A model generated the notes under the pieces. It was not told the DNA's origin and did no database searches. It worked only from the letters and a program-made list of their open reading frames with translations. A stretch of 64,000 nucleotides of DNA from Candidatus Kaiserbacteria bacterium RIFOXYB1_FULL_46_14 (GTDB lineage Bacteria > Patescibacteriota > Minisyncoccia > Phycocordibacterales > UBA918): the NCBI GenBank assembly GCA_001783525.1, contig MFMS01000006.1:21074-85073 (forward strand), given 5' to 3'. Positions 1,396-60,518 of the stretch are shown here, one piece after another (within the stretch, counting starts at the first letter, position 1; each line of letters begins with the position of its first letter). The position numbers were made by a program, and so were the translations under genes.

Positions 1396-2928
1396 GTGCG
1401 CTTATCATACGTCACGAGGGCGAAAAAGCAACGCAAATTTGCTAAGATTGTTCTTGTGATAATACGTGAAGATATACCGAAGGAAGTGGTAGCGGTGGCC
1501 GACTCTTTGGAAGGAGCCGGTTTTGAAGCGTACTTGGTTGGTGGATGCGTGCGCGACCTTCTGCTTGGCCGCACGCCCAAAGACTGGGATTTGACCACCA
1601 ACGCTAAGCCGGAAGAAATTCAGGCGCTTTTCCCTGAAACCTACTGCAATAATGACTACGGTACCGTCGGTGTAGTGAACGAGGAGACCACTGACTTGCG
1701 ACTCAAGGTTGTAGAAGTAACGCCATATCGCAGTGAGGGCGAATATTCGGACCGGAGAAGGCCTGACAAGGTTGAATTTGGAGTATCACTCGAAGAAGAC
1801 CTAAAGAGGCGTGATTTCACCGTGAACGCCCTAGCTTATCGCCCTAAAGACGAGAAGTTTGTTGACTTGTTCGACGGGGAAGGGGATTTGCGCAAAAAAC
1901 GGCTTAAAACCGTCGGTAATCCCGACGAACGCTTTGGCGAGGATGCTCTCCGTATGATGCGTGCTATCCGCTTGGCCGCAGAATTAAATTTTGCCATTGA
2001 AGCCGAGACGATGGCCTCAATAGCAAAAAATGCTGAGCTTTTAAGCCATATTTCAACCGAACGAATCCGTGACGAATTTCTCCGGATAATAAACTCCGAG
2101 AGTCCGATGCTTGGTCTTGCTATGCTTGAAAAGCTAGGCCTACTTCAATATGTTTTGCCAGAGCTTCGAGACGCGATTGGTTGTGAACAGGGAGGAATAC
2201 ACGCTTACGATGTGTACGAACATCTTCTGCGCTCTCTACAAGCGGCCGCCGATAAGGGTTATTCGACCGAGATGCGCTTGGCGGCTCTACTCCACGATAT
2301 TGGCAAGCCGATCACTCGCCGTGAGGGTGGCAAAAACAAGCGCTATACCTTCTTTGGTCACGAGGTAGTGGGCGCGCGCATGACTGCCAAGTTGATGAAG
2401 CGCCTGAAAATGCCCGTAGAAATTGCCAACGGGGTGGAAATCCTAGTGCGTTGGCATATGTTTTTTGCTGATCCGGACGCTATCACCTTGTCAGCCGTCC
2501 GCCGGACTATTGCTCGGGTAGGGGAGGAAAATATGGAGGATTTACTCAATCTCCGTGTCTGTGACCGAATCGGCACAGGCAGACCAAAGGAACAGCCGTT
2601 TCGCTTCCGCAAATACAAAGCCATGGTGGATCAGGCCCGCCGCGACCCCGTATCGGTCAAGATGCTGAAGACAGATGGGGATAAGATCATGGTACAAACT
2701 GGGGAAAAGCCGGGTAAAAAGCTAGGATACCTACTGCACGCACTACTAGAAGAAGTCTTGGAGGATCCGGCTAGAAATACCGAAGAATACCTAGACAACC
2801 GAGTAGCTGAGTTGATAAAGCTAGACGAAGGTAGTCTCAAAGAGCTTGGCGAAGCTGGCAAAGAGCGTCAGCAGGCCGAGGAAGAGGCGGCTATAAAGGA
2901 GATCGAGAGGAGTCATAAGGTCGGGTAA
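1396..2928 (+). CDS. cca: CCA tRNA nucleotidyltransferase / poly(A) polymerase family with HD domain
   Basis: GGCVRDLLLGRTPKDWDLTT nucleotidyltransferase head motif. HD motif LLHDIGKP. True start may be a few codons downstream. Confidence 0.85.
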   Translation: MRLSYVTRAKKQRKFAKIVLVIIREDIPKEVVAVADSLEGAGFEAYLVGGCVRDLLLGRTPKDWDLTTNAKPEEIQALFPETYCNNDYGTVGVVNEETTDLRLKVVEVTPYRSEGEYSDRRRPDKVEFGVSLEEDLKRRDFTVNALAYRPKDEKFVDLFDGEGDLRKKRLKTVGNPDERFGEDALRMMRAIRLAAELNFAIEAETMASIAKNAELLSHISTERIRDEFLRIINSESPMLGLAMLEKLGLLQYVLPELRDAIGCEQGGIHAYDVYEHLLRSLQAAADKGYSTEMRLAALLHDIGKPITRREGGKNKRYTFFGHEVVGARMTAKLMKRLKMPVEIANGVEILVRWHMFFADPDAITLSAVRRTIARVGEENMEDLLNLRVCDRIGTGRPKEQPFRFRKYKAMVDQARRDPVSVKMLKTDGDKIMVQTGEKPGKKLGYLLHALLEEVLEDPARNTEEYLDNRVAELIKLDEGSLKELGEAGKERQQAEEEAAIKEIERSHKVG

Positions 2929-2931
2929 TAG

Positions 2932-2960
2932 AAAAGCCGCCATATTTCGGGCGGCTTTTG
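2932..2960. terminator. Rho-independent terminator (bidirectional hairpin)
   Basis: aaaagccgcc-catatttc-gggcggctttt immediately after the cca stop. Confidence 0.7.
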
Positions 2961-2989
2961 CCATACATAGATGGCTAACTAAGGACGAC

Positions 2990-3253
2990 CTAACGGCACT
3001 GTGCCGCCAAGGCATTAAGGAAAGTTCTTCGCTGGGCTTTCGTACTGCCCGAACTGACCTCTACATAAAAACGAAAGGTTGAACCGTTTGTAACACTCCT
3101 CACAAAGAGCTCTCCGCAGTTTGAAACGTGCTTGGTCCAGAGTCTTTGTTGCTCCTCCTGGGTAGGGAAGAGCGTCTTTGGTCCGTTGGTGCTTATGCTC
3201 CAGCACCCAGAGCTGCGGTGGTATTGCATCGACAGACGAATGGCCCTACGCAT
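2990..3253 (-). CDS. Hypothetical small protein (87 aa)
   Basis: ATG at 3253 preceded on the minus strand by a strong SD, GGGAGGaaataaaaATG. No recognisable domain. Confidence 0.4.
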   Translation of the reverse strand: MRRAIRLSMQYHRSSGCWSISTNGPKTLFPTQEEQQRLWTKHVSNCGELFVRSVTNGSTFRFYVEVSSGSTKAQRRTFLNALAAQCR

Positions 3254-3408: not shown

Positions 3409-3861
3409 GTACGTCTCTCGACGGACAAAGAACATGTTTGAGCCCTTGTATAATTGCGGAGGCAATAGCCTCATGTGGAACCCTCTATGGGGTGATCCTG
3501 CGCAGACCGGGACTCTAACGTTGTATGTGTATTGTATTGATTGTGCTGTACGTAGAAACCTTTAGTAGGTTTCCTAAGGATTTCACTGTTTAGTATATTT
3601 TCGAGCCCGCGAGCCGAAAGGAAGGGTCGAGTAGTCAACCACTCTTTGCGGCCCACAAGCCCAAAACGTGAATTCCTAATGAGTATGGCTAGATACTCGT
3701 TTTGGTGGGAATGTGTGTTATGAACGTTGTTAGATTTTGGAGGTCTAACTTTTTTTGTGAAACGATCTCTTTAGGACCTTACGGTGCCCGCCCTTTCTGG
3801 ACCTTCCACTATTCTATGTCCTTTATAAAAAGGTGTAAAGGACATGATGTGTGGATAACTT

Positions 3862-3893
3862 AACAACTTGTCCTTTATAAAGGACAAGTTGTT
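3862..3893 (-). terminator. Hairpin directly downstream of xthA (one of two tandem hairpins sharing a tcctttataaa core)
   Basis: Perfect inverted repeat aacaacttgtccttta-taaaggacaagttgtt. A second related hairpin sits at ~3811-3850. No clear T-run, so it may be a processing or attenuation structure rather than a true terminator. Confidence 0.4.
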
Positions 3894-3904
3894 ATTATCT
3901 TTAT

Positions 3905-4696
3905 CTAGAGCGCTATTTCTATTGAAACTGGGCAGTGGTCAGAGCCGGAGACATCGGGGTGAATGGCGGCTTTCTTGATAAACGAGCGTAAATTTTCATC
4001 TGCCATTACATAGTCGATACGCCAACCAACGTTGCGTTCTCTAGCTTGAGCAAAATGTGACCACCAAGTGTAGTGTCCATTATCTTGGTGAAACAAACGA
4101 AAACTATCTACGAAGCCAGCGGCCAGCATATTATCAATGCCGTGACGTTCTTCTTCCGTAAAACCCTTCTTTCCTTTGTTCTCCTTCGGACGGGCCAAAT
4201 CTAGTTCGGTATGTGCCACATTCAAATCCCCGCAAAAAATCACTGGTTTCTCACTCTGGAGTTGTTTCATGTAAGTTAGGAAGGCAGCGTCCCACTGCTT
4301 GCGGGCAGGCAGGCGAGAGAGGTCGTCCTTAGCATTTGGAGTATAGACGGAGGTGACGAAGAAATGCTCAAACTCCAGAGTCGTGACACGACCTTCTTTG
4401 GCAGTATCGCCATAAGAATCCTTTAAATCAAAGGCTTTTTTGATATCTTCTGGCAAACCATAATATTCTGCCTCGGGAGCGATTTTGGTAAAAATAGCCG
4501 TGCCGGAGTAGCCTTTTTTCTCTGCTGAGCACCAATACTCATCATATTCAGGAAGATCTACCTCGCTCTGGCCTTGTTCGGCCTTGGTTTCCTGCAAACA
4601 AAGAACGTCCGGTTGATGTTTCTCAATAAAAGGTGCGAAAAAACCTTTCTTATGGACTGCCCGAATGCCATTTACGTTCCACGAGTAGATTTTCAT
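3905..4696 (-). CDS. xthA: Exodeoxyribonuclease III
   Basis: MKIYSWNVNGIRA...LCLQETK, and full-length similarity pattern of the ExoIII/AP endonuclease family. Confidence 0.9.
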   Translation of the reverse strand: MKIYSWNVNGIRAVHKKGFFAPFIEKHQPDVLCLQETKAEQGQSEVDLPEYDEYWCSAEKKGYSGTAIFTKIAPEAEYYGLPEDIKKAFDLKDSYGDTAKEGRVTTLEFEHFFVTSVYTPNAKDDLSRLPARKQWDAAFLTYMKQLQSEKPVIFCGDLNVAHTELDLARPKENKGKKGFTEEERHGIDNMLAAGFVDSFRLFHQDNGHYTWWSHFAQARERNVGWRIDYVMADENLRSFIKKAAIHPDVSGSDHCPVSIEIAL

Positions 4697-23390: not shown

Positions 23391-23801
23391 ATGAGATTTG
23401 AAGTACCACAATTCATTGAGATTGAAGATAAAATCTTTGGTCCTTTGACTTGGAAACAATTCATCTATGTTGCCGGCGGCAGTGGACTGGCGGTAGTGTT
23501 GTTTTTCTTCACACCATTCTTGGTGTTTATACTTTTTGGAATTCCAGTTGCCGCGCTAACATTCCTGCTTAGTTTCTACCCGGTCAATAATCGCCCTTTT
23601 TCAATCTTTATGGAGTCGGCTATTCGCTACTTTCAGGGAGCCAAGCTCTACTTATGGAGAAAACGTGGCACCGGTGTCTATCGCGGGGCAGCGGCTGATG
23701 AGGCAGGCACCCCTGCATATATGCCACCCTCTCCCACAGGAAACATAGCCTCAATCTCAAGGCGACTCGAACTTAAGGCCATTCAAAAAGACATCCACTA
23801 A
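23391..23801 (+). CDS. PrgI-like small membrane protein (T4SS-associated)
   Basis: MRFEVPQFIEIEDKIFGPLTWKQF followed by two TM helices, immediately upstream of VirB4. Confidence 0.4.
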   Translation: MRFEVPQFIEIEDKIFGPLTWKQFIYVAGGSGLAVVLFFFTPFLVFILFGIPVAALTFLLSFYPVNNRPFSIFMESAIRYFQGAKLYLWRKRGTGVYRGAAADEAGTPAYMPPSPTGNIASISRRLELKAIQKDIH

Positions 23802-24475: not shown

Positions 24476-26275
24476 ATGGGAATTTTTGACTTAATCAAAC
24501 AGAAAAGTGGTATTGGTGAAAAGGTGATAGACACCGAGAGCGCTTTGATGACACTTGAAGATGTGGTGGCACCTTCAGCTATTAAGGTTCAGCCCCGAAG
24601 TATCAATGTTAGTGGGCAAAACGCCCGTGTATTTTTTACCGTCTCTTATCCTCGTTACTTAAACGACGGCTGGCTCGAACCAATCCTAAACATTGAGCGC
24701 GAGATGGATGTTTCAATAATGATCCACCCAATCGATACCGCAGAAACCTTGAAGAAATTTCAAAAAAAGGTAGCCGAGGTGCAGAGTCAGATAAACATGA
24801 ACGAGGAAAAGGGCATGGTGCGTGACCCTCAACTCGAGGCTGCCTACCGAAACCTTGAAGATTTGCGTGACAAGCTGCAACAGGCCGAGGAGAAATTGTT
24901 TGATGTTGGTCTTTACGTGGCTGTTTATGGCGCAAGTGAAGAAATTCTTAATGAGACCGAATCAGAGATAAAGGGTATTCTTGATTCCCGCCTGGTCTAT
25001 CTAAAGCCAGCACTCTTTCAGCAGGAGCAGGGCTTCCGCAGTGTTATACCGACTGGATCTGATGAGCTAATGGTGCACAGCAAGTTCAACTCGAGCCCAC
25101 TTTCTAGCTTTTTTCCATTTACTTCATTCGACCTCACTAGTGACACCGGGATTCTTTACGGCATCAATCGCCACAATTCTTCTCTAGTACTCTTCGACCG
25201 TTTTGCTTTGACCAACTACAACTCTGTCACCTTTGCTACCTCCGGTGCCGGCAAATCGTACACTACAAAGCTTGAGATTCTACGCTCTTTGATGTTTGGG
25301 ACTGAAGTGATAGTGATCGACCCCGAGAGGGAATACGAGCACTTGGCCGAAGCGACCGGCGGGCGCTTCTTCAACATTTCTCTTTCTAGTAGCCACCACA
25401 TCAACCCTTTTGACTTGCCTGATCCACAAGAAGACGAAGCGCCAGAAGACGTTTTACGCTCACACATCATTGAACTAATTGGTTTGTTTAGGTTGATGCT
25501 TGGTGGTCTTTCACCGGAAGAAGAAACAATTATTGATCAGGCTCTGCATGAAGTTTATGCCCTTAAGGACATCAATGGCGACGTCAGTTGGCAAGGTTTG
25601 GAGCCGCCACTCCTTTCTGACTTTGAAATGGTATTGGCAGGAATGGAAGGTAGCGATTCACTCATCGCCCGTCTCCAAAAGTACACGGCTGGCACTTGGT
25701 CGGGCTTTATGAACAAGCCTACCAACGTTGATATCCACCAGAAATTTATCGTTTTCAGCTTGCGAGACATGGAGGATGAGCTGAAGACAATTGCGATGTA
25801 TATCATCACAAACCACATCTGGAATATGATTAGACGCCGCCTCCAGAAGCGCCTTCTCGTGATCGACGAGGCTTGGTGGATGATGAAGAGCGAAGATACG
25901 GCATCGTTCCTTTTCTCACTCGCCAAGCGCGGCCGTAAATACTATCTAGGCATAGCTACCATTACTCAAGACGTTGACGACTTCCTTCGCTCTCCGTACG
26001 GCGTGCCAATGATTACCAATTCTTCATTGCAATTTTTGATGAAGCAATCAGCTACCTCGATTGATCTGGTGCAACGCACCTTTAACCTAACGGACGAGGA
26101 AAAACTTCTACTTCTAGAGAGCAACGTGGGGGAGGGCATATTTTTCGTTGGACTTAAACACGTCGCCATCAAGGTGATTGCGAGTTACACAGAGGACCAG
26201 ATTATTACCTCTGATCCTTCACAAATTCTCCAGATCAAGCAGGCCCGAGAGGAGCTTCAAGCGGCTCAAAAATAA
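24476..26275 (+). CDS. virB4: VirB4/TraC-family conjugative ATPase, central and C-terminal part with Walker A/B
   Basis: Walker A ATSGAGKS, Walker B LLVIDEAWWMM. Begins 4 nt after the upstream stop, frame 2 versus frame 1, no SD. Confidence 0.8.
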   Translation: MGIFDLIKQKSGIGEKVIDTESALMTLEDVVAPSAIKVQPRSINVSGQNARVFFTVSYPRYLNDGWLEPILNIEREMDVSIMIHPIDTAETLKKFQKKVAEVQSQINMNEEKGMVRDPQLEAAYRNLEDLRDKLQQAEEKLFDVGLYVAVYGASEEILNETESEIKGILDSRLVYLKPALFQQEQGFRSVIPTGSDELMVHSKFNSSPLSSFFPFTSFDLTSDTGILYGINRHNSSLVLFDRFALTNYNSVTFATSGAGKSYTTKLEILRSLMFGTEVIVIDPEREYEHLAEATGGRFFNISLSSSHHINPFDLPDPQEDEAPEDVLRSHIIELIGLFRLMLGGLSPEEETIIDQALHEVYALKDINGDVSWQGLEPPLLSDFEMVLAGMEGSDSLIARLQKYTAGTWSGFMNKPTNVDIHQKFIVFSLRDMEDELKTIAMYIITNHIWNMIRRRLQKRLLVIDEAWWMMKSEDTASFLFSLAKRGRKYYLGIATITQDVDDFLRSPYGVPMITNSSLQFLMKQSATSIDLVQRTFNLTDEEKLLLLESNVGEGIFFVGLKHVAIKVIASYTEDQIITSDPSQILQIKQAREELQAAQK

Positions 26276-45012: not shown

Positions 45013-45711
45013 ATGCTTAAAGTGTTCTGTGGTAACGACCAAATCAAAGTGCGACAACAAGCGCTTAGTTTTGTTGAACAGTTACGTGAGCAAGGATTGT
45101 CGATCGAGGCAATCGATAGCGACAATTATGAGTCGGGCAAGATCACCGAAGCGGCGGTAAAGGTGTCGCTTTTTGGCGGAGAAATGGCATGCCTTATAGA
45201 TATGCCTTCTATGGATAAAGAGATGTCTGCGGAAGTCACTGAAAACCTTGCCGTGTTGGCAAAATCCCAGCATCACTTTGTGGTGATCGAAGGGGCGTTA
45301 TTGGCCGATGAGAAAAAACTGTGGAGTAAGCACGCGGAGGTAGAGGAGAGCAAAGCGGGGGCGGCCACACGTTTTAATACTTTTGCGCTTGCCGACGCTT
45401 TGGCAAGGCGCGACCGCAAGTCACTCTGGCTGATTTGGAATGAAGCACGCCTATCTGGTATTGCGACTGAAGAGTTGGTGGGTATTCTATGGTGGCAGTT
45501 GAAGTCGCTACGTTTGGCGGCCTTAACCAAGAGCGCCGAAGAGGCAGGGATGAAAGATTATCCGTATCAAAAAGCGAAGCGTGCTCTCCTTAAATTTAAG
45601 GCAGATGAAACGGAGACGTTGTCTCATGTATTACTCGATACCTATCATCAGAGTCGTTTGGGAGGATTGGATCTGGATTTGGCCATTGAACGATGGCTTC
45701 TCCGTGTTTGA
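45013..45711 (+). CDS. Hypothetical protein, possibly a short DNA polymerase III delta subunit (HolA-like)
   Basis: Position directly after polA; weak pattern similarity to HolA N- and C-terminal regions. Confidence 0.3.
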   Translation: MLKVFCGNDQIKVRQQALSFVEQLREQGLSIEAIDSDNYESGKITEAAVKVSLFGGEMACLIDMPSMDKEMSAEVTENLAVLAKSQHHFVVIEGALLADEKKLWSKHAEVEESKAGAATRFNTFALADALARRDRKSLWLIWNEARLSGIATEELVGILWWQLKSLRLAALTKSAEEAGMKDYPYQKAKRALLKFKADETETLSHVLLDTYHQSRLGGLDLDLAIERWLLRV

Positions 45712-45753
45712 AGCATTGAAAAATGCACTAGACGCGGGTATAGTGTGCCCATC

Positions 45754-45826
45754 CCGCCTATAGCTCAGCTGGTAGAGCAGGTCCCTTTTAAGGACAAGGT
45801 CCCAGGTTCGATCCCTGGTGGGCGGA
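45754..45826 (+). tRNA. tRNA-Lys(TTT)
   Basis: Acceptor CCGCCTA/TGGGCGG, D-arm TAGCTCAGCTGGTAGAGCA, anticodon loop CTTTTAA, T-loop GGTTCGATCCC. Confidence 0.85.
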
Positions 45827-45877
45827 CGAGTACAAAAACGAGCACGCGTAAGCGTGCCGTTTTTGTTCGTCCGCCCA
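45819..45877 (+). terminator. Long palindromic terminator incorporating the tRNA-Lys 3' end
   Basis: tgggcggacga.g.tacaaaaacg-[gcacgcgtaagcgtgc]-cgtttttgt.tcgtccgccca. The outer arms are the tRNA acceptor 3' strand and its inverted copy. Confidence 0.65.
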
Positions 45878-45902
45878 CAGCAACAGTCTGGGGGACTGTT
45901 GC

Positions 45903-46105
45903 GTCAGGGATCGAAAACCTTTTGAGATATTTTGGAAGCGAAGCTGAACAAAATATCCAAAAGGTGTACTGCTCCGTAGGAGAGATACCCTGGTGGGCGG
46001 ATGTCTGTCAGGGATCGAAGGGGTTGCCAGGTATTTTGTGAACGAAGAGAAACAAAATAGCGACAACCCATACTGCCCTGTAAGGGAGATCTCCTAGTGG
46101 CCGGA
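45903..46105 (+). repeat. Two tandem ~99-nt structured repeat units, each ending with a copy of the tRNA-Lys 3'-terminal 14 nt
   Basis: Unit A is 45903-46001 and unit B is 46007-46105, ~65% identical. Each starts gtcagggatcgaa (inverted T-arm) and ends ccctggtgggcgga or cctagtggccgga. Each has an internal 16-bp hairpin whose stem sequence differs between units while pairing is kept. Confidence 0.6.
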
Positions 46106-46162
46106 CCTACTTTTAGCTGCGGTTCCCAAACAAATTTTGTGCTAGTATCCTCGGATTAATTT

Positions 46163-46624
46163 ATGCAAAAAATAGTCATCCTCGACAATATTCGTAGTGC
46201 TCATAATGTCGGCTCAATCTTTCGTACTGCCGATGGGGCAGGGGTGTCCAAAATTTATCTCGTTGGTTATACACCAACACCGCGCGATCGCTTCGGCCGT
46301 GTGTCGCCGGAAATTTCAAAGACCTCACTCGGTGCGACTGAAACCGTGGGGTGGGAACATATCGATAACGAAGCCGTGCCAGTTTTGCTGACGCGGCTTC
46401 GGTCAGAGGGTTTTCAAATAGTCGCAATCGAACAAACTCCAAGATCAATCTTTTTGCAGGATTTTGTTTTACCCGAAAAGGTCGTTTATGTATTTGGTAA
46501 CGAGATCGATGGGGTAAGTACAGCTTTTCTCGAGGCCGTTGATACAGTTGTAGAAATCCCAATGCACGGATCAAAAGAATCTCTCAATGTCTCTGTGACC
46601 GCCGGTATTGTTTTGTTTAAGTAG
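46163..46624 (+). CDS. SpoU/TrmH-family RNA 2'-O-methyltransferase
   Basis: 153 aa, SAHNVGSIFRTADGAG and a C-terminal knot region. Confidence 0.8.
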   Translation: MQKIVILDNIRSAHNVGSIFRTADGAGVSKIYLVGYTPTPRDRFGRVSPEISKTSLGATETVGWEHIDNEAVPVLLTRLRSEGFQIVAIEQTPRSIFLQDFVLPEKVVYVFGNEIDGVSTAFLEAVDTVVEIPMHGSKESLNVSVTAGIVLFK

Positions 46625-46743
46625 ATTACTCCACCATCACCTCCACCCCTCTCTCATCCACCCGCTGGATGCTCCTTTAGACAAATTTATTTTAAAGTGG
46701 TATTACTTGGTTAGGTAACAACTCCAAAAAGGGAGAGTAGAAG

Positions 46744-47454
46744 ATGTCGATCTTTGTAAAGGTACTGGTACTCGCGGTTTTCTTCCTCGTCGCCTTGGTC
46801 ATCAGTCCCAAGGCTAAGGCTGAAGAAGATTTCGATCTCTTCGGTATGGCGGCGCGCACGGGCGTATTTTTCTTGGATCGTGGCACGTTGGACGACGTCG
46901 AAACAGTACAAGAAATATTCTACAACCATGGATACGACGTCGTTGTCGATGGAAACTATGGTCCAAAGACAGAGAAAGCGATTCGCAAACTCCAGTCCAA
47001 CACGGGGCAACCTGAAACTGGTATTCTCGAGTATCATCAATGGCTTTCCCTCAAAGCCGCAGCACTACCGAAAAGCTGGGGGGCACTCAGCGCTTCAATC
47101 GACGGCAAGTTCGGCGAAGCGCACAACAAGAGCAGTCGTGCTCTCGCCGAGCAGATTGCACAGCGCCGTTGTGAGAGATATACGAAGCGGGGATGCATTG
47201 TTATATCAATCGCCGACAACGGCTGGTCCGTCGCCAGATGGTGCAAGAAGAAAAATACAACTTGGATTTTCATGGGTGCAAGCACGGTCAACTATCAGAC
47301 AGCCCATGAAGAACTCCTGAGACAAGCCGCTGGCGTTGATCCAGAGATCGCCTTCGGCGGGAAATGTTTCAAGCAGATCGAACACAATGCCAAAGCCGGC
47401 TTCCTCGATGACATGGAAGATTGGCAGCTCGGCGGGATTGAACACGAAGATTAA
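46744..47454 (+). CDS. Secreted peptidoglycan-binding domain + DUF4189-like protein
   Basis: Signal peptide; PG_binding_1-like region (YGPKTEKAIRKLQSNTGQPETGILEYHQW); C-terminal WGALSAS...RRCERYTKRGCIVIS...ARWCKK, a Cys pattern like DUF4189. Higher GC than its surroundings. Confidence 0.5.
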   Translation: MSIFVKVLVLAVFFLVALVISPKAKAEEDFDLFGMAARTGVFFLDRGTLDDVETVQEIFYNHGYDVVVDGNYGPKTEKAIRKLQSNTGQPETGILEYHQWLSLKAAALPKSWGALSASIDGKFGEAHNKSSRALAEQIAQRRCERYTKRGCIVISIADNGWSVARWCKKKNTTWIFMGASTVNYQTAHEELLRQAAGVDPEIAFGGKCFKQIEHNAKAGFLDDMEDWQLGGIEHED

Positions 47455-47575
47455 GGGCAAGTTACTATTCAGGCCGGAGCGCTACGCGCACCGGCCTTTG
47501 CTTTTTCCCCAAAAATGTGTTACTGTATTCAGGCCATGTCGCACTGGGCGGCACGGTAAACAAAAGGATAGTCCA

Positions 47576-47773
47576 ATGACAACGATACTCCTCGCAATAG
47601 CACTCGTTCTTCAACTATCGTCGGGCAAGGCAGAGGCAGAGCCTCTCAAATGCTTTGATCTAGATGAGGGACAAAGAGTGTGTATCGAGGAAGAGGGAGA
47701 CATGTCGGCCGCGCCGACGAATGAACTCCCCGTAATCGACGAGATAGAGAAGGTCGCTTACTACAACATCTAG
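47576..47773 (+). CDS. Small secreted hypothetical protein (65 aa)
   Basis: Signal peptide MTTILLAIALVLQLSSGKAEA. RBS AAAGGA. Followed by a terminator at ~47918-47958. Confidence 0.4.
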   Translation: MTTILLAIALVLQLSSGKAEAEPLKCFDLDEGQRVCIEEEGDMSAAPTNELPVIDEIEKVAYYNI

Positions 47774-48013
47774 TTGTGGAAAAGAACTTCTCGGGTGTAG
47801 GGCGGGCTATTGCTCGCCCTACATACCCATAATCTCTTGCCATATTTCCAGCGATGGTGTATGGTGAATGTAAAGGTCTTGGACGCCTTTGTTTCAGCCC
47901 CAGTACGATCCCCGCGATCGTCATATAGCCGGAGCGCAACCTTATCCCAGTTTGGTTGCCTCCGGCTTTTTTTATTTATTCCACCGCATATGTTGGCGGG
48001 GTAACTCAACCGC

Positions 48014-48041
48014 TTGACAATTGGCGGTAGTTGTGTATAAT
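48014..48041 (+). promoter_or_regulatory. Perfect consensus sigma70-type promoter
   Basis: TTGACA (48014-48019), 16-nt spacer, TATAAT (48036-48041). Strong SD AGGAGG at 48085-48090 with ATG at 48100. Confidence 0.65.
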
Positions 48042-48099
48042 AGATGACAGAAAGCCTTGGGAAAACCCACGGCTAAAGTAAGGCCAGGAGGCCAAAAAG

Positions 48100-48345
48100 A
48101 TGAACAAGTTGTTTGCAATCGCATTAGTCCTCGTCACCGCTTTTGCCGTCTCGGCCGAGGCTGGCTCGTACGAAGCCTGCAAATCTCAGGCACGCTCTGG
48201 TCCTCTCAAGGGTTCCACCAAGATCGCCACCGTGTGGAACGGCGGCGGTAACACGAGGGTGGCTTGGTACCATAAAAAGTACAAAGACCCGAAAACCGGA
48301 AAGGTCTACCAGGGATGTGTCCGTTTTACGATCGTTCCGAAATAG
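48100..48345 (+). CDS. Small secreted hypothetical protein (81 aa)
   Basis: Signal peptide MNKLFAIALVLVTAFAVSAEA. Consensus promoter plus strong SD upstream. Terminator hairpin ggcccggctgaatctcagttgggcc + T-run downstream. Confidence 0.6.
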   Translation: MNKLFAIALVLVTAFAVSAEAGSYEACKSQARSGPLKGSTKIATVWNGGGNTRVAWYHKKYKDPKTGKVYQGCVRFTIVPK

Positions 48346-48423
48346 CAACGTGCACGACACGTTTTCTAAAGGCCCGGCTGAATCTCAGTTGGGCCTTTTA
48401 TCAACATAAATAAAAAGTGTTTT

Positions 48424-48448
48424 CTGTACATTGTCGTACAATGTACAG
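48424..48448. promoter_or_regulatory. Perfect 10-5-10 inverted repeat abutting the start codon of gene 48451
   Basis: ctgtacattg-tcgta-caatgtacag, ending 2 nt before ATG 48451. Candidate operator or translation-sequestering hairpin. Confidence 0.45.
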
Positions 48449-48450
48449 AT

Positions 48451-49956
48451 ATGGTCACTAAAAAAAATAAAAAAATAAATCCCCTAGATCTTTTTAGTAA
48501 AGTAGGTTTATTGGGTTTATCTTTAAACACAATTCGGGCACATGCGGAAGGAGAGGGTCCTGGTGGTGGTGGTACAGATCAACAATCAGTAACAGAAGGA
48601 GATACTATACCTGGCACAGACGTTACAGCGACTGTGGGCGAGACATATGGTGTGGATTACAACGGTGACGGTTTAAATGATGTGAGTTTCGATGTTACCC
48701 CTCAACCTTCGACCCCATTCCTAGTAGTTTGGAATGGTGAGAAGTTTGTGCATGAAAATGATTTTCTTTTTGGTAAGCCGAACACTGTCTTTGCCAATTA
48801 CAAAGTTGGTTTGAAAAAATACGAACAGGGTATTGGCGGCGACACCTATTTGCTTAGTGACCAGCTCAAGACCGACAAAGACGGAAATTTGAAGATGCAG
48901 ATCCGTGAACTAGAGCCAGAGGAGTCATATATAGATAAGTTTGAAATTGGAGCGCTCGATTTGAAAGAAAGTGAGCACTACGTAGTCGATGGCAACTTAG
49001 TGGATAGTTATATTTTTGATACCCAAGAGGCTAAGGCGGTAGCAGGGGAGATGCATCACTACCACTCTAAACAAAATGTTTTCACAGCAGTCGAGGGTGC
49101 TTATACCAGCCTCACACCAAAAGATGGCGAGAGCATAACCATGCAGGCAGGCGATGAACTTGTTATCCGTGTGTCGAAAGCCCAACTAGATCCGGCGGTG
49201 GATACTTACGTCTTGGTTGATTCTCATTTCCGCGACTGGTCTCTTGGCGATCAGGTGCCTTTCTCTCGCTTGGAAAGATTTATGATTCAGAGTGTTGCTC
49301 TTGGTCAACGTAGCGCGACGGCAGTAGCGGGGGCGGCGATGCTGGCCTCGATCGCCTTTGTCGGCATTACTAAGACCGATTCTGACACCTTGGCCAAACT
49401 GCTTAATGTTCCGCATAGCTATGCCGACTACACCATTGGTGATCCAACGAGGTCTCTCGTCATCTCTGCTGGTGATAGTTTCGGTCAGACTTACTTGCAG
49501 ACCCTCTTTCCACGTTATGTACAAGCCGCACAAGAGGTAGTGCGTATTCCAAAAGATGTGATTGCTAATCTGAAAGACGAGTTTCTCACTCTTCGTGTCA
49601 AAGCTACCAAGAAACATAAGGTGCGCGCTGCCTTTGCTTTCCAGGGCACTGCTCACATTCCAAAGATAGAGACTTTATCACTACAAAAACTTGCAGACAC
49701 CAAAACTGGTGCAGACTATACAGAACAAATGAAGGAGAAGAATGGTGTTTTCCTCCACACAATTCCTGGTGATGTACTTGATTTAGTAATCAAAGATACT
49801 CCGAAAGTAGCCAATACTAAGAGACGCTATGTCTTACGCGCTAATGGTTTTTACACTCGTATGTCTGCGAAGACGACCGCAATTGTGGGAAAGAATTGGT
49901 TGGAACGCCTAGCCCCAGAAGATCGCAATCTGCTTAAAGGCCTCCGCTTGTCTTAA
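48451..49956 (+). CDS. Hypothetical secreted protein (501 aa)
   Basis: Lys-rich N-terminus followed by a hydrophobic segment. No recognisable domain. Confidence 0.5.
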   Translation: MVTKKNKKINPLDLFSKVGLLGLSLNTIRAHAEGEGPGGGGTDQQSVTEGDTIPGTDVTATVGETYGVDYNGDGLNDVSFDVTPQPSTPFLVVWNGEKFVHENDFLFGKPNTVFANYKVGLKKYEQGIGGDTYLLSDQLKTDKDGNLKMQIRELEPEESYIDKFEIGALDLKESEHYVVDGNLVDSYIFDTQEAKAVAGEMHHYHSKQNVFTAVEGAYTSLTPKDGESITMQAGDELVIRVSKAQLDPAVDTYVLVDSHFRDWSLGDQVPFSRLERFMIQSVALGQRSATAVAGAAMLASIAFVGITKTDSDTLAKLLNVPHSYADYTIGDPTRSLVISAGDSFGQTYLQTLFPRYVQAAQEVVRIPKDVIANLKDEFLTLRVKATKKHKVRAAFAFQGTAHIPKIETLSLQKLADTKTGADYTEQMKEKNGVFLHTIPGDVLDLVIKDTPKVANTKRRYVLRANGFYTRMSAKTTAIVGKNWLERLAPEDRNLLKGLRLS

Positions 49957-49973
49957 GAGTTAAATTATTATCT

Positions 49974-51038
49974 ATGTTTGAATTAATAAAACAAAAAATA
50001 CCATCGCTCACATCTATCGCGGGTTCAATAGTGGCGATCGTGGTGGTGCTAGGTGTGTACGGAATATGGCAGTTTGTCTGGCCGTCAATCAGTATCAACA
50101 AACTTGGAACAGAAAATCTTTCTGGAAGACTTGTTTACAGTGGCATGCAAAAAGCGGGTGAGCTTGCACCGAAGACTTATAGTTTGATCCTTGATAACAA
50201 TGATATGAAGGTAGTGAATGAAAGTAAGCGCTTCAAAGTCCTTTCTAGTAACGCTGTTGAGTTTGCTACATCAAGCAACAGTAAGGATTTTTTCTTCATG
50301 GACTTAGCCTTTGATAATTCTTCTGGTACCAGCACTGTGGTTAAGCGTGTCATGCATGCGATTTTTCCAGACACATTGGAGGTAGTAACCCGAGGTGTGC
50401 CAGAACAATACGGCACGATGTCTTGGTCTCCGAATCTTAGAATGCTGGCACTGAGCATAGCGCGAGAAAACCTAGATGGACAGGCAAAGGTTTCTACTTT
50501 GAACTGGAAGGTCTTACTTACTAACGAAAGTGGGGAAGTGCAACTCGAAATACCTGATGCAGCCAACCCAGTTTGGATGCCAAACAGTAACCTACTCCTA
50601 TATCTTCGATCTGACGGAATTTATGCTTACGATACATTGATCGGAGCTGAACAGCGTGTCCTCAGCTTCTTAGATGAAAGTGAACAACCGTTTTCCGCTG
50701 TTGTCAGCATTATGTTCGAGGTGTCACCCGATGGTCGTAAATTGGTTTTGACAACTCCCGGCACTGGAAACATCAGTGTCTATGAAGTGTCGGCCACTAT
50801 GGATGTGACGAAGTTGTATTCACGAGAAAACCAATCAGTGAATTATTCTTGGCCAGTGGTTTCACCTGATGGAATGTCTTACGCGGTCATTGCTAGAGAC
50901 ATTGTAGATGGCGCTTTTGCTAATCCAAGAATTGAGTTTTACCCGATCAGTGATGAGAAGCAGGGAGTTATAGGCGCATATCCCCTAAACGGATTTAATC
51001 CTTCTCGTGTTTACCTGGACGACTGGGTTAGTAACTAA
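49974..51038 (+). CDS. Membrane-anchored PD40/TolB-like beta-propeller repeat protein
   Basis: N-terminal TM helix; repeated W/SPDG-type motifs (WSPNLRMLALS, VSPDGRKLVLT, VSPDGMSYAV). Confidence 0.4.
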   Translation: MFELIKQKIPSLTSIAGSIVAIVVVLGVYGIWQFVWPSISINKLGTENLSGRLVYSGMQKAGELAPKTYSLILDNNDMKVVNESKRFKVLSSNAVEFATSSNSKDFFFMDLAFDNSSGTSTVVKRVMHAIFPDTLEVVTRGVPEQYGTMSWSPNLRMLALSIARENLDGQAKVSTLNWKVLLTNESGEVQLEIPDAANPVWMPNSNLLLYLRSDGIYAYDTLIGAEQRVLSFLDESEQPFSAVVSIMFEVSPDGRKLVLTTPGTGNISVYEVSATMDVTKLYSRENQSVNYSWPVVSPDGMSYAVIARDIVDGAFANPRIEFYPISDEKQGVIGAYPLNGFNPSRVYLDDWVSN

Positions 51039-51048
51039 ATAAAAAATA

Positions 51049-51085
51049 AAAAAGCGCTGCGTTAGACGCAGCGCTTTTTTATTTT
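51049..51085. terminator. Bidirectional rho-independent terminator
   Basis: aaaaagcgctgcg-ttag-acgcagcgctttttt between convergent genes. Confidence 0.8.
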
Positions 51086-51095
51086 GCACTCCTCT

Positions 51096-52415
51096 TTATT
51101 TTGCTAGAGCAGCTAGTTCTTCTTTCACCACTTCGGCGTCACTCCATTTTTTCTTTGTATTGTTAGGACCCATGATGTAAGGGTCGGTTCCTTTGCCGGA
51201 AATTATCACGTAGTCGCCGTGCTTAGCCTCTTCTAGCGCGTTGCGAATAGCCAGGCGGCGATCCATTATGATGTCTAGTTTTGATTTGTCAGTAATACCA
51301 TTGGCCATTTCTTCCAATATCTTTCGTGGGTTTTCATCATAAGGGTCTTCGTTGGTGAGAATCACTCGATCGCAGTATTTGTCTGCGATAGCTCCCATTT
51401 CTGGGCGTTTCCAACGATCGCGGCCGCCGCCAGTATTGCCAAGTACGCACACTTTTGAAACATCCTTGAATGCTTGGTAGAGCTTTTCTAAAGAATCAGG
51501 AGTATGGGCATAGTCCACCACTGCGGTGATCTGTTTACCTGCTCCGGAGGGGCTGTAAAAATGTTCGACGCGGCCGTTGACGGGAGGGAGGGTACCAAGA
51601 GCTTTTTCGATAGAACGCCAAGGTATATTGAGTGCTCTCGTTAATGTAATAGCAGCTAGCGCGTTATAGACATTGAAGAGTCCGACCAAGGGTACGCGAA
51701 TGGTTATTTCCTCACCGACATCTTTAAAAATCAGACCAATACCATCTTTGTGTAAGGTGTGAAGTTCCAAGGAATGCAAAGAAAACGGCAGTTTTTCCTC
51801 GGTATCAATTTTTAGAAAATCAGCGCCGTGTTCATCGTCAGTGTTGGCTACAATGTAGCGGGGTCGTTTGGGAGATTTTTCCAGTCCTTTAGCGATCGAT
51901 AACTTAGCCTCTTTGTATCGCAGGAAAGAGCCGTGCGACTCTATGTGTTCGGGGGTTAGGTTCGTGAAGACTAGCGCGTCTAGTTCAATGAAGCGGTGAC
52001 GATATTGTTTGGCACCCTCCGATGTCATCTCAATCACAGCGTGTGTACAACCTGCCGCCGCTGCGTCGCGGAGAAATTTTTGCACAAAGAAACGACCAGG
52101 GGTGGTCATTTTGTAGAGATTGGGTTTTGTTTCATTGCCAATCTTGAATTGGATTGTAGAAAGGGAAGCGGTCTTTATACCAGCGGTGGATAATATAGCG
52201 CTGATTAACTCCACGGTGGTGGACTTACCCTTTGTGCCTGTCACGGCAATAACGGTCAATTCACGAGATGGGTGGTGATAGAGTTTGTCTCCAAGCCAAG
52301 CTAGCGCCAAGTGGTATGGGGGACGGAGATGGTTGAGCACCTGTACCGGCAACATCCGTTTGCACCAATATAAGATTGTATCCATACAAGACAGTATAAA
52401 ATGAAAATCACTCAC
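51096..52415 (-). CDS. Mur ligase family protein (MurE-like)
   Basis: ATP-binding GTKGKSTT, central Mur ligase domain, C-terminal domain. Exact substrate specificity not assignable from sequence. Confidence 0.6.
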   Translation of the reverse strand: MSDFHFILSCMDTILYWCKRMLPVQVLNHLRPPYHLALAWLGDKLYHHPSRELTVIAVTGTKGKSTTVELISAILSTAGIKTASLSTIQFKIGNETKPNLYKMTTPGRFFVQKFLRDAAAAGCTHAVIEMTSEGAKQYRHRFIELDALVFTNLTPEHIESHGSFLRYKEAKLSIAKGLEKSPKRPRYIVANTDDEHGADFLKIDTEEKLPFSLHSLELHTLHKDGIGLIFKDVGEEITIRVPLVGLFNVYNALAAITLTRALNIPWRSIEKALGTLPPVNGRVEHFYSPSGAGKQITAVVDYAHTPDSLEKLYQAFKDVSKVCVLGNTGGGRDRWKRPEMGAIADKYCDRVILTNEDPYDENPRKILEEMANGITDKSKLDIIMDRRLAIRNALEEAKHGDYVIISGKGTDPYIMGPNNTKKKWSDAEVVKEELAALAK

Positions 52416-60192: not shown

Positions 60193-60456
60193 TGCCGAAC
60201 ATCCAAAGGCCGTCGATCACTTGTGATCGACGGCCTTTTATTTTTTGAATAGGGGAGGGGGTTTCATGAGGGATTTGATCCTTACTTTCAAATGAGCGAG
60301 CGAAATGAACAAATGCTCTTGTTCATTTCCAAGCGAATGAGGAAAGAAAGCTATACTTACAGGATCAGTACACCTTTTGTATATTTTATTTCGTTGTTAC
60401 TCATAAAATATCTCAAAAGGTTTTCAAATCCCTACGCACGTGCGGCGGGGTACGTG

Positions 60457-60518
60457 CTCATCGCCCACAAATAAAAACCGCACACGTACGTGTGCGGTTT
60501 TTATTTGTGGGCGATGAG
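60457..60518. terminator. Perfect 30-2-30 palindrome / bidirectional terminator incorporating the tRNA-Val 3' end
   Basis: ctcatcgcccacaaataaaaaccgcacacg-ta-cgtgtgcggtttttatttgtgggcgatgag. The right-arm 3' 11 nt are the tRNA-Val acceptor 3' strand. Confidence 0.7.

Follow-up and report, generated by a model that had tools for sequence, protein, structure and literature searches.

Kin protection and a mycobacterial effector have only recently been associated with the DUF4189 family. XAC2611 (Tpf), which is abundant in the periplasm of Xanthomonas citri, binds VirB5 and blocks fratricide by the type IV secretion system (T4SS), and its family is highly variable (bioRxiv 10.64898/2026.05.09.723464). 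Rv1813c, a secreted effector of Mycobacterium tuberculosis with a DUF4189 domain, presents four conserved cysteines, a WACN motif and a two-lobe beta/beta/alpha/beta fold (PDB 7nhz; 10.1101/2021.01.31.428746). Here we analyzed a 64 kb stretch of a Patescibacteria chromosome (hereafter, the window) in which a block of about 1.7 kb (positions 46640–48420) encodes a 236-aa protein (p236) that combines a peptidoglycan-binding PG_binding_1 domain with DUF4189, as well as two tiny proteins of 65 and 81 aa (p65 and p81). Both p65 and p81 are annotated as hypothetical proteins from Candidatus Kaiserbacteria bacterium RIFOXYB1_FULL_46_14, and p236 maps to a 166-kb scaffold of a Rifle aquifer assembly. 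On balance, we read this block as a vertically inherited, lineage-specific and probably strongly expressed cassette of a Kaiserbacteria genus for exported envelope proteins under diversifying selection, rather than as a recent island.

Like XAC2611 and Rv1813c, p236 presents an N-terminal signal, a Cys-stabilized DUF4189 domain, high variability among lineages and a location, predicted in this case, in the envelope or outside the cell; unlike them, it carries an extra N-terminal PG_binding_1 domain, is not part of a T4SS locus and belongs to a candidate phyla radiation (CPR) bacterium. Its conserved cysteines number four, as in Rv1813c, versus six in XAC2611. Residues 50–110 of p236 resemble the PG_binding_1 modules of endolysins, SleB-type cortex-lytic enzymes and L,D-transpeptidases (PDB relatives 4xxt, 5tv7, 7rum and 4fet), but no catalytic domain is attached and the partner is DUF4189, suggesting a role of p236 in binding or display instead of hydrolysis. 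To our knowledge, almost nothing is known about the proteins that CPR/Patescibacteria use at their surface toward hosts, competitors or kin, and literature searches on secreted proteins of Kaiserbacteria returned nothing specific. The locus offers a short, well-delimited candidate set, comprising the peptidoglycan-binding DUF4189 protein, two clade-restricted small secreted proteins of opposite charge and a possible small RNA.

Organization and conservation of the cassette

Genes in this part of the window are ordered T2SSE (minus strand), TsaE, PolA, HolA-like, tRNA-Lys(UUU), SpoU methylase, p236, p65, p81, p501, p354 and a convergent Mur ligase. Related genomes (L numbers denote their loci or contigs, and P numbers p236 homologue proteins) present the same arrangement; L086 and L088/89/90 contain p236, p65, a small basic protein, p501 and p354 in this order between SpoU and a convergent Mur. 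L088/89/90 are 87%, 85% and 72% identical to the window in PolA, Mur and SpoU, respectively, and L086 is 80% identical in Mur. On shorter contigs, the first genes were also found in L085, L096 and L097; the contigs of L085 and L096 end before SpoU or Mur. The p65 and basic-protein genes co-occur in every lineage whose contig reaches far enough. Presence or absence in relatives had been set beforehand as the check on the proposal, made in the initial annotation, that the block was acquired horizontally; within the clade, the block was found conserved at the same position, in three lineages with both flanks seen and in two on partial contigs. In addition, a 33%-identical PG_binding_1 and DUF4189 protein, P0087 (L098), lies between SpoU and Mur in a Paceibacterota metagenome-assembled genome (MAG) whose PolA is 61% identical, behind GGACAA-17-TGG-TAGTAT, the same promoter type as that of p236. 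Because P0087 holds the same junction in this distant MAG, p236 seems to be an old resident of the SpoU–Mur junction; the p65, basic-protein, p501 and p354 genes appear to have been added in the ancestor of the window's clade.

Each of the three genes is predicted to form a separate transcription unit with its own σ70-type promoter, a 5′ leader with a Shine-Dalgarno (SD)-like motif and an intrinsic terminator, and the cassette appears to include an additional noncoding unit that ends in a terminator. The features, given with their positions in the window, are as follows:

46678–46706, plus strand: p236 promoter as read from the sequence, TAGACA, 17-nt spacer, TGG-TATTAC (extended −10 type)
46731–46735, plus strand: SD-like GGGAG of p236, conserved in the alignment
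46744–47454, plus strand: p236 gene, 236 aa, with putative signal peptide, PG_binding_1 (residues 50–95), DUF4189 (residues 112–193) and four invariant Cys
47471–47506, plus strand: putative intrinsic terminator of p236 (−20.8 kcal/mol, z −4.1), nearly invariant in six lineages
47498–47526, plus strand: p65 promoter, TTGCTT (47498–47503), 17-nt spacer, TGT-TACTGT ending at 47526, overlapping the T-run of the p236 terminator
47564–47568, plus strand: SD-like AAGGA of p65
47576–47773, plus strand: p65 gene, 65-aa precursor, mature protein of ~44 aa with net charge of ~−9 and two Cys (C-x9-C)
47793–47828, plus strand: GC-rich hairpin right after the p65 stop codon, lacking a T-run (−28.5 kcal/mol, z −6.9)
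47837–47975, plus strand: noncoding unit with promoter-like box TTGCCA-17-TATGGT (47837–47865), variable body of ~60 nt and terminator (47927–47975)
48014–48041, plus strand: p81 promoter, TTGACA-16-TATAAT, perfect σ70 match
48054–48073, plus strand: 5′-proximal stem-loop of the p81 leader (GCCTTGGG / CCCACGGC)
48082–48093, plus strand: small hairpin GGCC-AGGA-GGCC displaying the SD sequence AGGAGG (48086–48091), 8 nt before the ATG
48100–48345, plus strand: p81 gene, 81-aa precursor, mature protein of 60 aa with net charge of ~+10, pI 10.1 and two Cys
48368–48406, plus strand: putative intrinsic terminator of p81 (−22.3 kcal/mol, z −7), conserved with compensatory changes
48451–49956, plus strand: p501, part of the remaining lineage-specific SpoU–Mur insert
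49974–51038, plus strand: p354, likewise part of the remaining insert

Both domains of p236 scored above their Pfam cut-offs (PG_binding_1, PF01471, 44.5 bits versus 23; DUF4189, PF13827, 27.7 bits versus a gathering cut-off of 25), in agreement with the initial description of a signal-peptide protein with a peptidoglycan-binding and a DUF4189-like part, and its N-terminus is signal-like by inspection. DUF4189 matches were also found on the homologues P0001, P0002 and P0004. Across six homologues, C143, C151, C167 and C208, as well as the pair W166-C167, are invariant, and a (T/G)AGACAA...TGGTATnAT motif is present upstream of all six. A profile search against the PDB matched 4xxt at E = 5.5e-7 and 7nhz (Rv1813c) at only E = 0.33. 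The protein is a mosaic; the peptidoglycan-binding part of the window protein groups with L085 and L086 (81–82% identical; L088, 55%), and the last 66 residues fall into discrete types, with 83% identity between window and L085, 74% between L086 and L088, and 14–19% between types. This C-terminal grouping is incongruent with the relatedness of Mur and p501. A profile search of 1.84 billion representatives was dominated by multi-repeat PG_binding_1 proteins, with only P0087, P0100 and P0086 spanning both domains; when metagenomes were scanned with the p236 alignment, only the L088 contig was recovered once more, along with weak peptidoglycan-binding matches.

The 81-aa gene is preceded, as first described, by a perfect TTGACA-16-TATAAT promoter and an AGGAGG SD sequence; the promoter is the sole perfect match in 64 kb, where 0.07 would be expected by chance. 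Both hexamers are identical wherever aligned (six cassette copies from five lineages) and much of the spacer is conserved; the aligned stretch of L096 starts inside the −35 box, and its full TTGACA was seen in another alignment. The stem-loop of the leader presents compensatory changes at 6/8 pairs, with 97% (4 sequences) and 90% (6 sequences) of cells paired. AAGGAG(G) is conserved in 6/6 copies, and the hairpin displaying it is weakly supported. Positional counterparts of p81 in L085 (two copies), L086 and L088 encode mature proteins of 57–69 aa with net charges of +10 to +14 and two Cys, which are 19–29% identical; L096 holds only the start of the gene in this slot. A word-index protein search with p81 returned only p81 itself, in the same MAG, and no Pfam, NCBIfam or PHROG family matched it. 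In L085, the promoter, leader and signal-peptide part of the p81 cassette is duplicated (3560–3916 and 4110–4441), preceding two different cationic two-Cys proteins (95 and 82 aa, respectively); the public gene call at L085 4169–4447 is on the wrong strand.

Homologues of p65 were found in five other lineages (44–64% identical), with mature proteins of ~44–47 aa, net charges of −7 to −9 and the C-x9-C loop. All three genes can be regarded as real, as initially proposed, with signal-like N-termini by inspection; the signal-like segment of p65 lacks a basic n-region. No family match for p65 was found in Pfam, NCBIfam or PHROG, and a word-index search returned only p65 itself or clade members. 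The T-run of the p236 terminator overlaps the −35 box of the p65 promoter, and the p65 leader is conserved across lineages along with this overlap. The hairpin after p65 is retained with altered sequence in relatives. Further downstream, the box and the terminator (−26.1 kcal/mol, z −7) of the noncoding unit are conserved in six lineages and the body between them is variable; this unit may represent either a small RNA (sRNA) of ~100 nt or the end of the p65 3′ untranslated region (UTR), and the sRNA remains a candidate because RNAalifold supported the terminator helix alone. The unit contains no conserved open reading frame (ORF) and has no Rfam match; a 24-codon ORF starting at ATGGTGTATGG (~47855) was rejected as coding, being cut short or lost in L088 and L086.

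The window had been described as SD-poor, which our counts support, with 52/57 genes lacking a 4-nt SD core; three of the five SD-like matches (weak to strong) belong to cassette genes. A −10-like box ends 4–9 nt before the start codon in 25/57 genes (versus 10% at random positions), suggesting that leaderless mRNAs are common in this genome. p236, p65 and p81 are thus exceptional, as they have leaders of roughly 35–50 nt with SD-like motifs in a largely leaderless window; each is also followed by a strong hairpin and a T-run. An anti-SD motif has been reported in only 48% of Parcubacteria (PMC9297842); literature searches on SD or leaderless usage in Patescibacteria found nothing specific. 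The locus suggests that SD-led and leaderless genes are sharply separated within a single small genome, and its clear, conserved expression signals could serve heterologous expression.

The regulatory DNA of the cassette is conserved as much as, or more than, its coding DNA. Intergenic identity between the window and L088 was 77% and 74% for two internal regions, as compared to ~72% for housekeeping coding sequences, 63% for the p236 coding sequence and 56% for that of p81, and the promoters and terminators align across four to six lineages. The two remaining genes of the insert, p501 and p354, present normal composition (G+C content at third codon positions, GC3, 0.42), lack an SD and look leaderless, with a TACAAT box that stops 8 nt upstream of the p501 start. 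No Pfam, NCBIfam or PHROG family fits p501, and p354 presented only weak matches to TolB-like propellers. At 48423–48449, a perfect 12-bp inverted repeat (TCTGTACATTGT cgt ACAATGTACAGA) overlaps the TACAAT −10 box of p501 and stops 1 nt short of the start codon; L085, L086 and L088 do not conserve it.

The SpoU–Mur junction seems to act as a hot spot for envelope or secreted-protein genes, because the extra genes found there differ by lineage. They comprise, in L088 (2509–6246, minus strand), a 1245-aa Hydrolase_2 (cell-wall hydrolase) protein, in L086 (1672–2157, plus strand), a 161-aa Cys-rich signal-peptide protein, and in L085, S66/M16 peptidases (1567–3072) as well as the duplicated basic gene.

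Codon usage and age of the cassette

The initial annotation had placed the block at ~55–60% GC and its flanking genes at ~40–47%. We found 50.4% GC for 46640–48420, as compared to 46.2% for the whole window, with no 300-nt window above 54%, and 45–46%, not 40%, for the flanking genes; the figure for the block was therefore an overestimate. The block does represent a higher-GC stretch, at the 99th percentile of windows of the same size, but its excess is smaller than had been supposed and two other stretches (1.4–3.2 kb and 38.2–40.3 kb) tie with it. The G/C-rich third codon positions, on the other hand, were borne out and are a stronger signal than bulk GC. With GC3 of 0.58 (p236), ~0.57 (p65, start at 47576) and 0.65 (p81), the three genes rank 1–3 among 57 ORFs (mean 0.46, sd 0.05). 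The shift is from T to C at third positions (C3 0.35 versus 0.24; T3 0.20 versus 0.30), and CTC accounts for 60% of Leu codons in the three genes versus 14%, with corresponding shares of 46% versus 17% for GTC and 65% versus 31% for TTC.

The same bias was found in relatives. GC3 values of the orthologues were 0.56/0.58/0.61 in L088 and 0.54/0.48/0.65 in L086, as compared to 0.34–0.49 and 0.37–0.44, respectively, for neighboring genes, and the two basic-protein genes of L085 had GC3 of 0.65 and 0.73; pooled C3/(C3+T3) was 0.56 versus 0.38 (Fisher p = 3e-18). Synonymous sites are saturated at 48–64% protein identity, so that a foreign signature would have decayed by now; because the bias is kept in orthologues at that identity, it must be maintained, which argues for selection and not for un-ameliorated foreign DNA. 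Atypical composition is therefore not diagnostic of recent transfer; as this locus illustrates, an "islet" in composition can be a trait that a set of genes conserves, instead of a trace of transfer. The bias would be explained by translational selection acting on genes of high expression; the gene for ribosomal protein S20 in the window (C3/(C3+T3) of 0.63) ranks with the three cassette genes. C-ending codons, a consensus promoter, a stabilizing 5′ hairpin and an SD sequence would together represent an adaptation for high expression.

Several observations weigh against the reading of a vertically inherited, probably strongly expressed cassette for exported proteins. The ribosomal L19 ORF, the only other ribosomal-protein gene in the window, does not share the bias (0.43), so that little reference data stand behind the expression argument. 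Signal peptides were assigned visually, as N-terminal hydrophobic segments with AxA-type sites in all three ORFs. The AlphaFold2 (AF2) model of p236, built from six sequences, was weak (predicted local distance difference test, pLDDT, 53), as was the single-sequence model of p81 (pLDDT 67), a helix packed on a three-stranded sheet for which a Foldseek search of the PDB found nothing below E = 0.2. When p81 was compared to its positional counterparts with phmmer, only the signal peptide was detectable; between lineages, homology of the basic proteins could not be demonstrated outside this peptide, and replacement is as possible as divergence in this slot. Finally, none of 80 SpoU loci of GTDB species representatives (42–63% SpoU identity) had any of the five genes, and in the most syntenic of them SpoU ends 35–104 nt from the end of Mur. 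The lineage-specific insert thus comprises the whole 4.5 kb (46625–51095), beyond the GC-richer 1.7 kb, and was gained or repeatedly lost at some depth; its absence is limited to relatives at ~60% PolA identity.

An ancient transfer into the ancestor of the Kaiserbacteria clade, from an SD-using donor of higher GC and with foreign-type signals kept because they are functional, is a possible origin of the cassette, although an improbable one. It would account for three adjacent genes that combine SD sequences, leaders and C3-rich codons otherwise lacking in the genome, for the lack of p65 and p81 homologues outside the clade and for the 80 relatives without the five genes; DUF4189 has, moreover, been reported mainly from Proteobacteria, Actinomycetes and Cyanobacteria (bioRxiv 10.64898/2026.05.09.723464). 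However, the presence of a p236 homologue at this junction in a distant Paceibacterota genome suggests long residence in CPR, p501 and p354 were gained at the same site and are of native composition, and the bias persists past synonymous saturation, so that selection would be needed anyway.

Candidate roles in surface recognition and antagonism

If the cassette does encode exported envelope proteins, p236 would be exported through Sec, bind the cell's peptidoglycan via PG_binding_1 and display a disulfide-stabilized DUF4189 domain; p65 would be a small acidic exported protein (~44 aa, net charge −9) and p81 a small basic one (~60 aa, net charge +10). The mature basic protein and the C-terminal lobe of DUF4189 diversify fast or are swapped between lineages while the regulatory DNA stays fixed. 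Because the exposed parts are hypervariable and the regulatory DNA is fixed, a surface or secreted role in recognition of, or antagonism with, hosts, competitors or kin may be expected, and surface recognition or antagonism is our best guess for the function of the cassette. One may speculate that the opposite charges of p65 and p81-type proteins reflect a partner relationship.

The initial annotation had suggested effectors, bacteriocin-like peptides or immunity proteins, an idea that would fit the hypervariability described above. A more specific proposal is that p81 is a secreted cationic toxin or antimicrobial-like protein, p65 its charge-matched neutralizer, chaperone or immunity factor, and p236 a wall anchor or shield. 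The opposite charges are conserved (about +10 to +14 and −7 to −9), each small protein has one Cys pair, and the two genes co-occur wherever the contig reaches. The pattern of p81, with conserved promoter, leader and signal peptide, a hypervariable mature part and a duplicated cassette in L085, would also fit. In families such as conotoxins, defensin-like peptides and class II bacteriocins, the signal or regulatory region is conserved and the mature part hypervariable; by analogy only, p81 resembles them in its invariant promoter, leader and signal peptide in six copies, its small size, positive charge and Cys pair, and its duplication in L085. Unlike these families, p81 has a leader of Sec type and not of double-glycine type, presents no similarity to them in sequence or fold and has no recognized transporter or immunity gene. 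Searches of Pfam, NCBIfam, PHROG and, with Foldseek, the PDB revealed no similarity to bacteriocin, defensin or immunity families, and there is no dedicated transporter or processing gene nearby; p65 and p81 are, moreover, predicted to be separate transcription units and the charge argument is circumstantial. We thus regard a toxin with its neutralizer as unlikely.

With equally low confidence, the cassette may be viewed more broadly as a polymorphic surface recognition or antagonism module of an episymbiotic CPR bacterium, comprising a wall-tethered DUF4189 protein with exchangeable C-terminal specificity lobes, a cationic effector with a charge-matched anionic partner, both small and secreted in abundance, and dedicated SD-dependent leadered translation in a genome where initiation otherwise uses neither SD nor leader. 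If so, the locus would supply the first concrete candidate factors for the interaction of Kaiserbacteria with hosts or kin, as well as two modes of translation initiation partitioned by gene class in one genome.

It seems quite doubtful that p236 is an exclusion or kin-protection factor like XAC2611, tethered to the wall and binding the tip of the T4SS or pilus of sibling cells. The DUF4189 score, the predicted signal peptide, the invariant cysteines and a C-terminal lobe that is polymorphic between lineages recall the abundant, VirB5-binding XAC2611 and its variable family, and the window encodes a PrgI family protein (23391–23801) and a TraG/VirB4-like P-loop ATPase (24476–26275), both T4SS-like, as well as a T2SSE/pilus ATPase (40.4–42.1 kb). 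However, the T4SS-like genes are ~20 kb away, so that membership in a Tpf system is not supported, and p236 has SpoU, p65 and Mur as its immediate neighbors; a VirB5 homologue was not identified, the DUF4189 protein Rv1813c has an unrelated role, and neither the AF2 model nor the match to 7nhz confirms the fold.

tRNA-linked elements near the tRNA-Lys gene

The tRNA-Lys gene and att-like repeats had been taken as signs of horizontal acquisition. Like tRNA-associated islands, the block presents atypical third-position composition and lies within 1 kb of a tRNA gene and of a repeated copy of that gene's 3′ end; unlike such islands, it has no integrase, is neither contiguous with the tRNA nor flanked by repeats, and is fixed in the clade at the SpoU–Mur site. 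The proximity to the tRNA holds only in part:

45754–45827, plus strand: tRNA-Lys(UUU), ~800 nt upstream of the block
46163–46624: SpoU methylase gene, between the tRNA and the block, which are therefore not contiguous
51096–52415: Mur ligase gene, convergent to the block

The tRNA 3′ end CCCTGGTGGGCGGA occurs in only two copies (45813 and 45988), both upstream of SpoU and not flanking the block, and no copy, even with mismatches, was found near 48.4 or 51.1 kb. No integrase or mobility domain was present in the gene table of a 20.7-kb stretch (window approx. 36.7–57.5 kb) or in Pfam scans. Even though the block stands out in codon usage, SD and promoter signals, lies near a repeat of the tRNA 3′ end and is missing from the 80 GTDB relatives, a recently acquired islet integrated next to tRNA-Lys is highly improbable, given the intervening SpoU gene, the position of both copies, the lack of mobility genes, the shared site and conserved bias in related lineages, and the occurrence of the repeats' element family beside tRNA-Val and in genomes lacking the block.

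The repeats belong to two tandem structured units of ~100 nt after tRNA-Lys (45903–46001 and 46007–46105), which fold together with an upstream arm from 45866 at −70.9 kcal/mol (z −9.1). In each unit, the acceptor 3′ strand and T-loop of the tRNA recur in inverted form and the tRNA 3′ end in direct form, and a long hairpin, GTACTG and a small hairpin lie between them; the elements also have a terminator-like hairpin, and sizes in the family are ~100–170 nt. A covariance model was built from three units, and its matches lie just downstream of tRNA genes, on the same strand (tRNA-Lys, tRNA-Val and a tRNA with a UUA anticodon). The elements found were:

Window 45866–46105, plus strand: downstream of tRNA-Lys
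Window 60328–60470, minus strand (model match 60328–60435): downstream of tRNA-Val
L088 1575–1674: one element
L006 9500–9790, minus strand: two tandem copies, downstream of tRNA-Lys
L010 9669–9788, minus strand: downstream of tRNA-Lys
L057 6166–6265, minus strand: downstream of tRNA-Arg, found in the first search only (E = 0.09)
L028 2296–2394: downstream of the UUA-anticodon tRNA

Unit 1 is 92–94% identical to the L088 element, as compared to 72% for the flanking coding sequence. At the three loci with flanks read (tRNA-Lys and tRNA-Val of the window and tRNA-Lys of L006), the element ends correspond to the 3′ end of the tRNA next to them. Compensatory changes were found at 14/17 pairs of the long hairpin, in an alignment that was fitted to the model. 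The elements represent a conserved tRNA-linked family and not an att scar of the islet. The tyrT-distal repeats of E. coli, or RtT RNA (Rfam RF00391), follow a tRNA gene in tandem, and each repeat closes with a copy of the 3′ end of that tRNA. The elements described here share this layout; unlike RtT, they present an inverted T-loop and acceptor copy and a covarying long hairpin, follow several different tRNAs in Paceibacterota and have no Rfam match. In the Rfam search only tRNAs reached the gathering score, and nothing credible was found at E ≤ 10 in 45700–48500, with RtT not among the matches.

The tRNA-Lys(UUU) gene keeps its position between HolA and SpoU in relatives, but its strand varies; the window, L088 and L007 have it on the plus strand, and most other relatives (compared were L005, L006, L010, L011, L017, L018, L022 and L026) on the minus strand. 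In L028, which represents a related uncultured genome, ARAGORN called the UUA-anticodon tRNA ("tRNA-Stop") at 2151–2224, followed by the tRNA-linked element listed above; this may be a suppressor or recoding tRNA.

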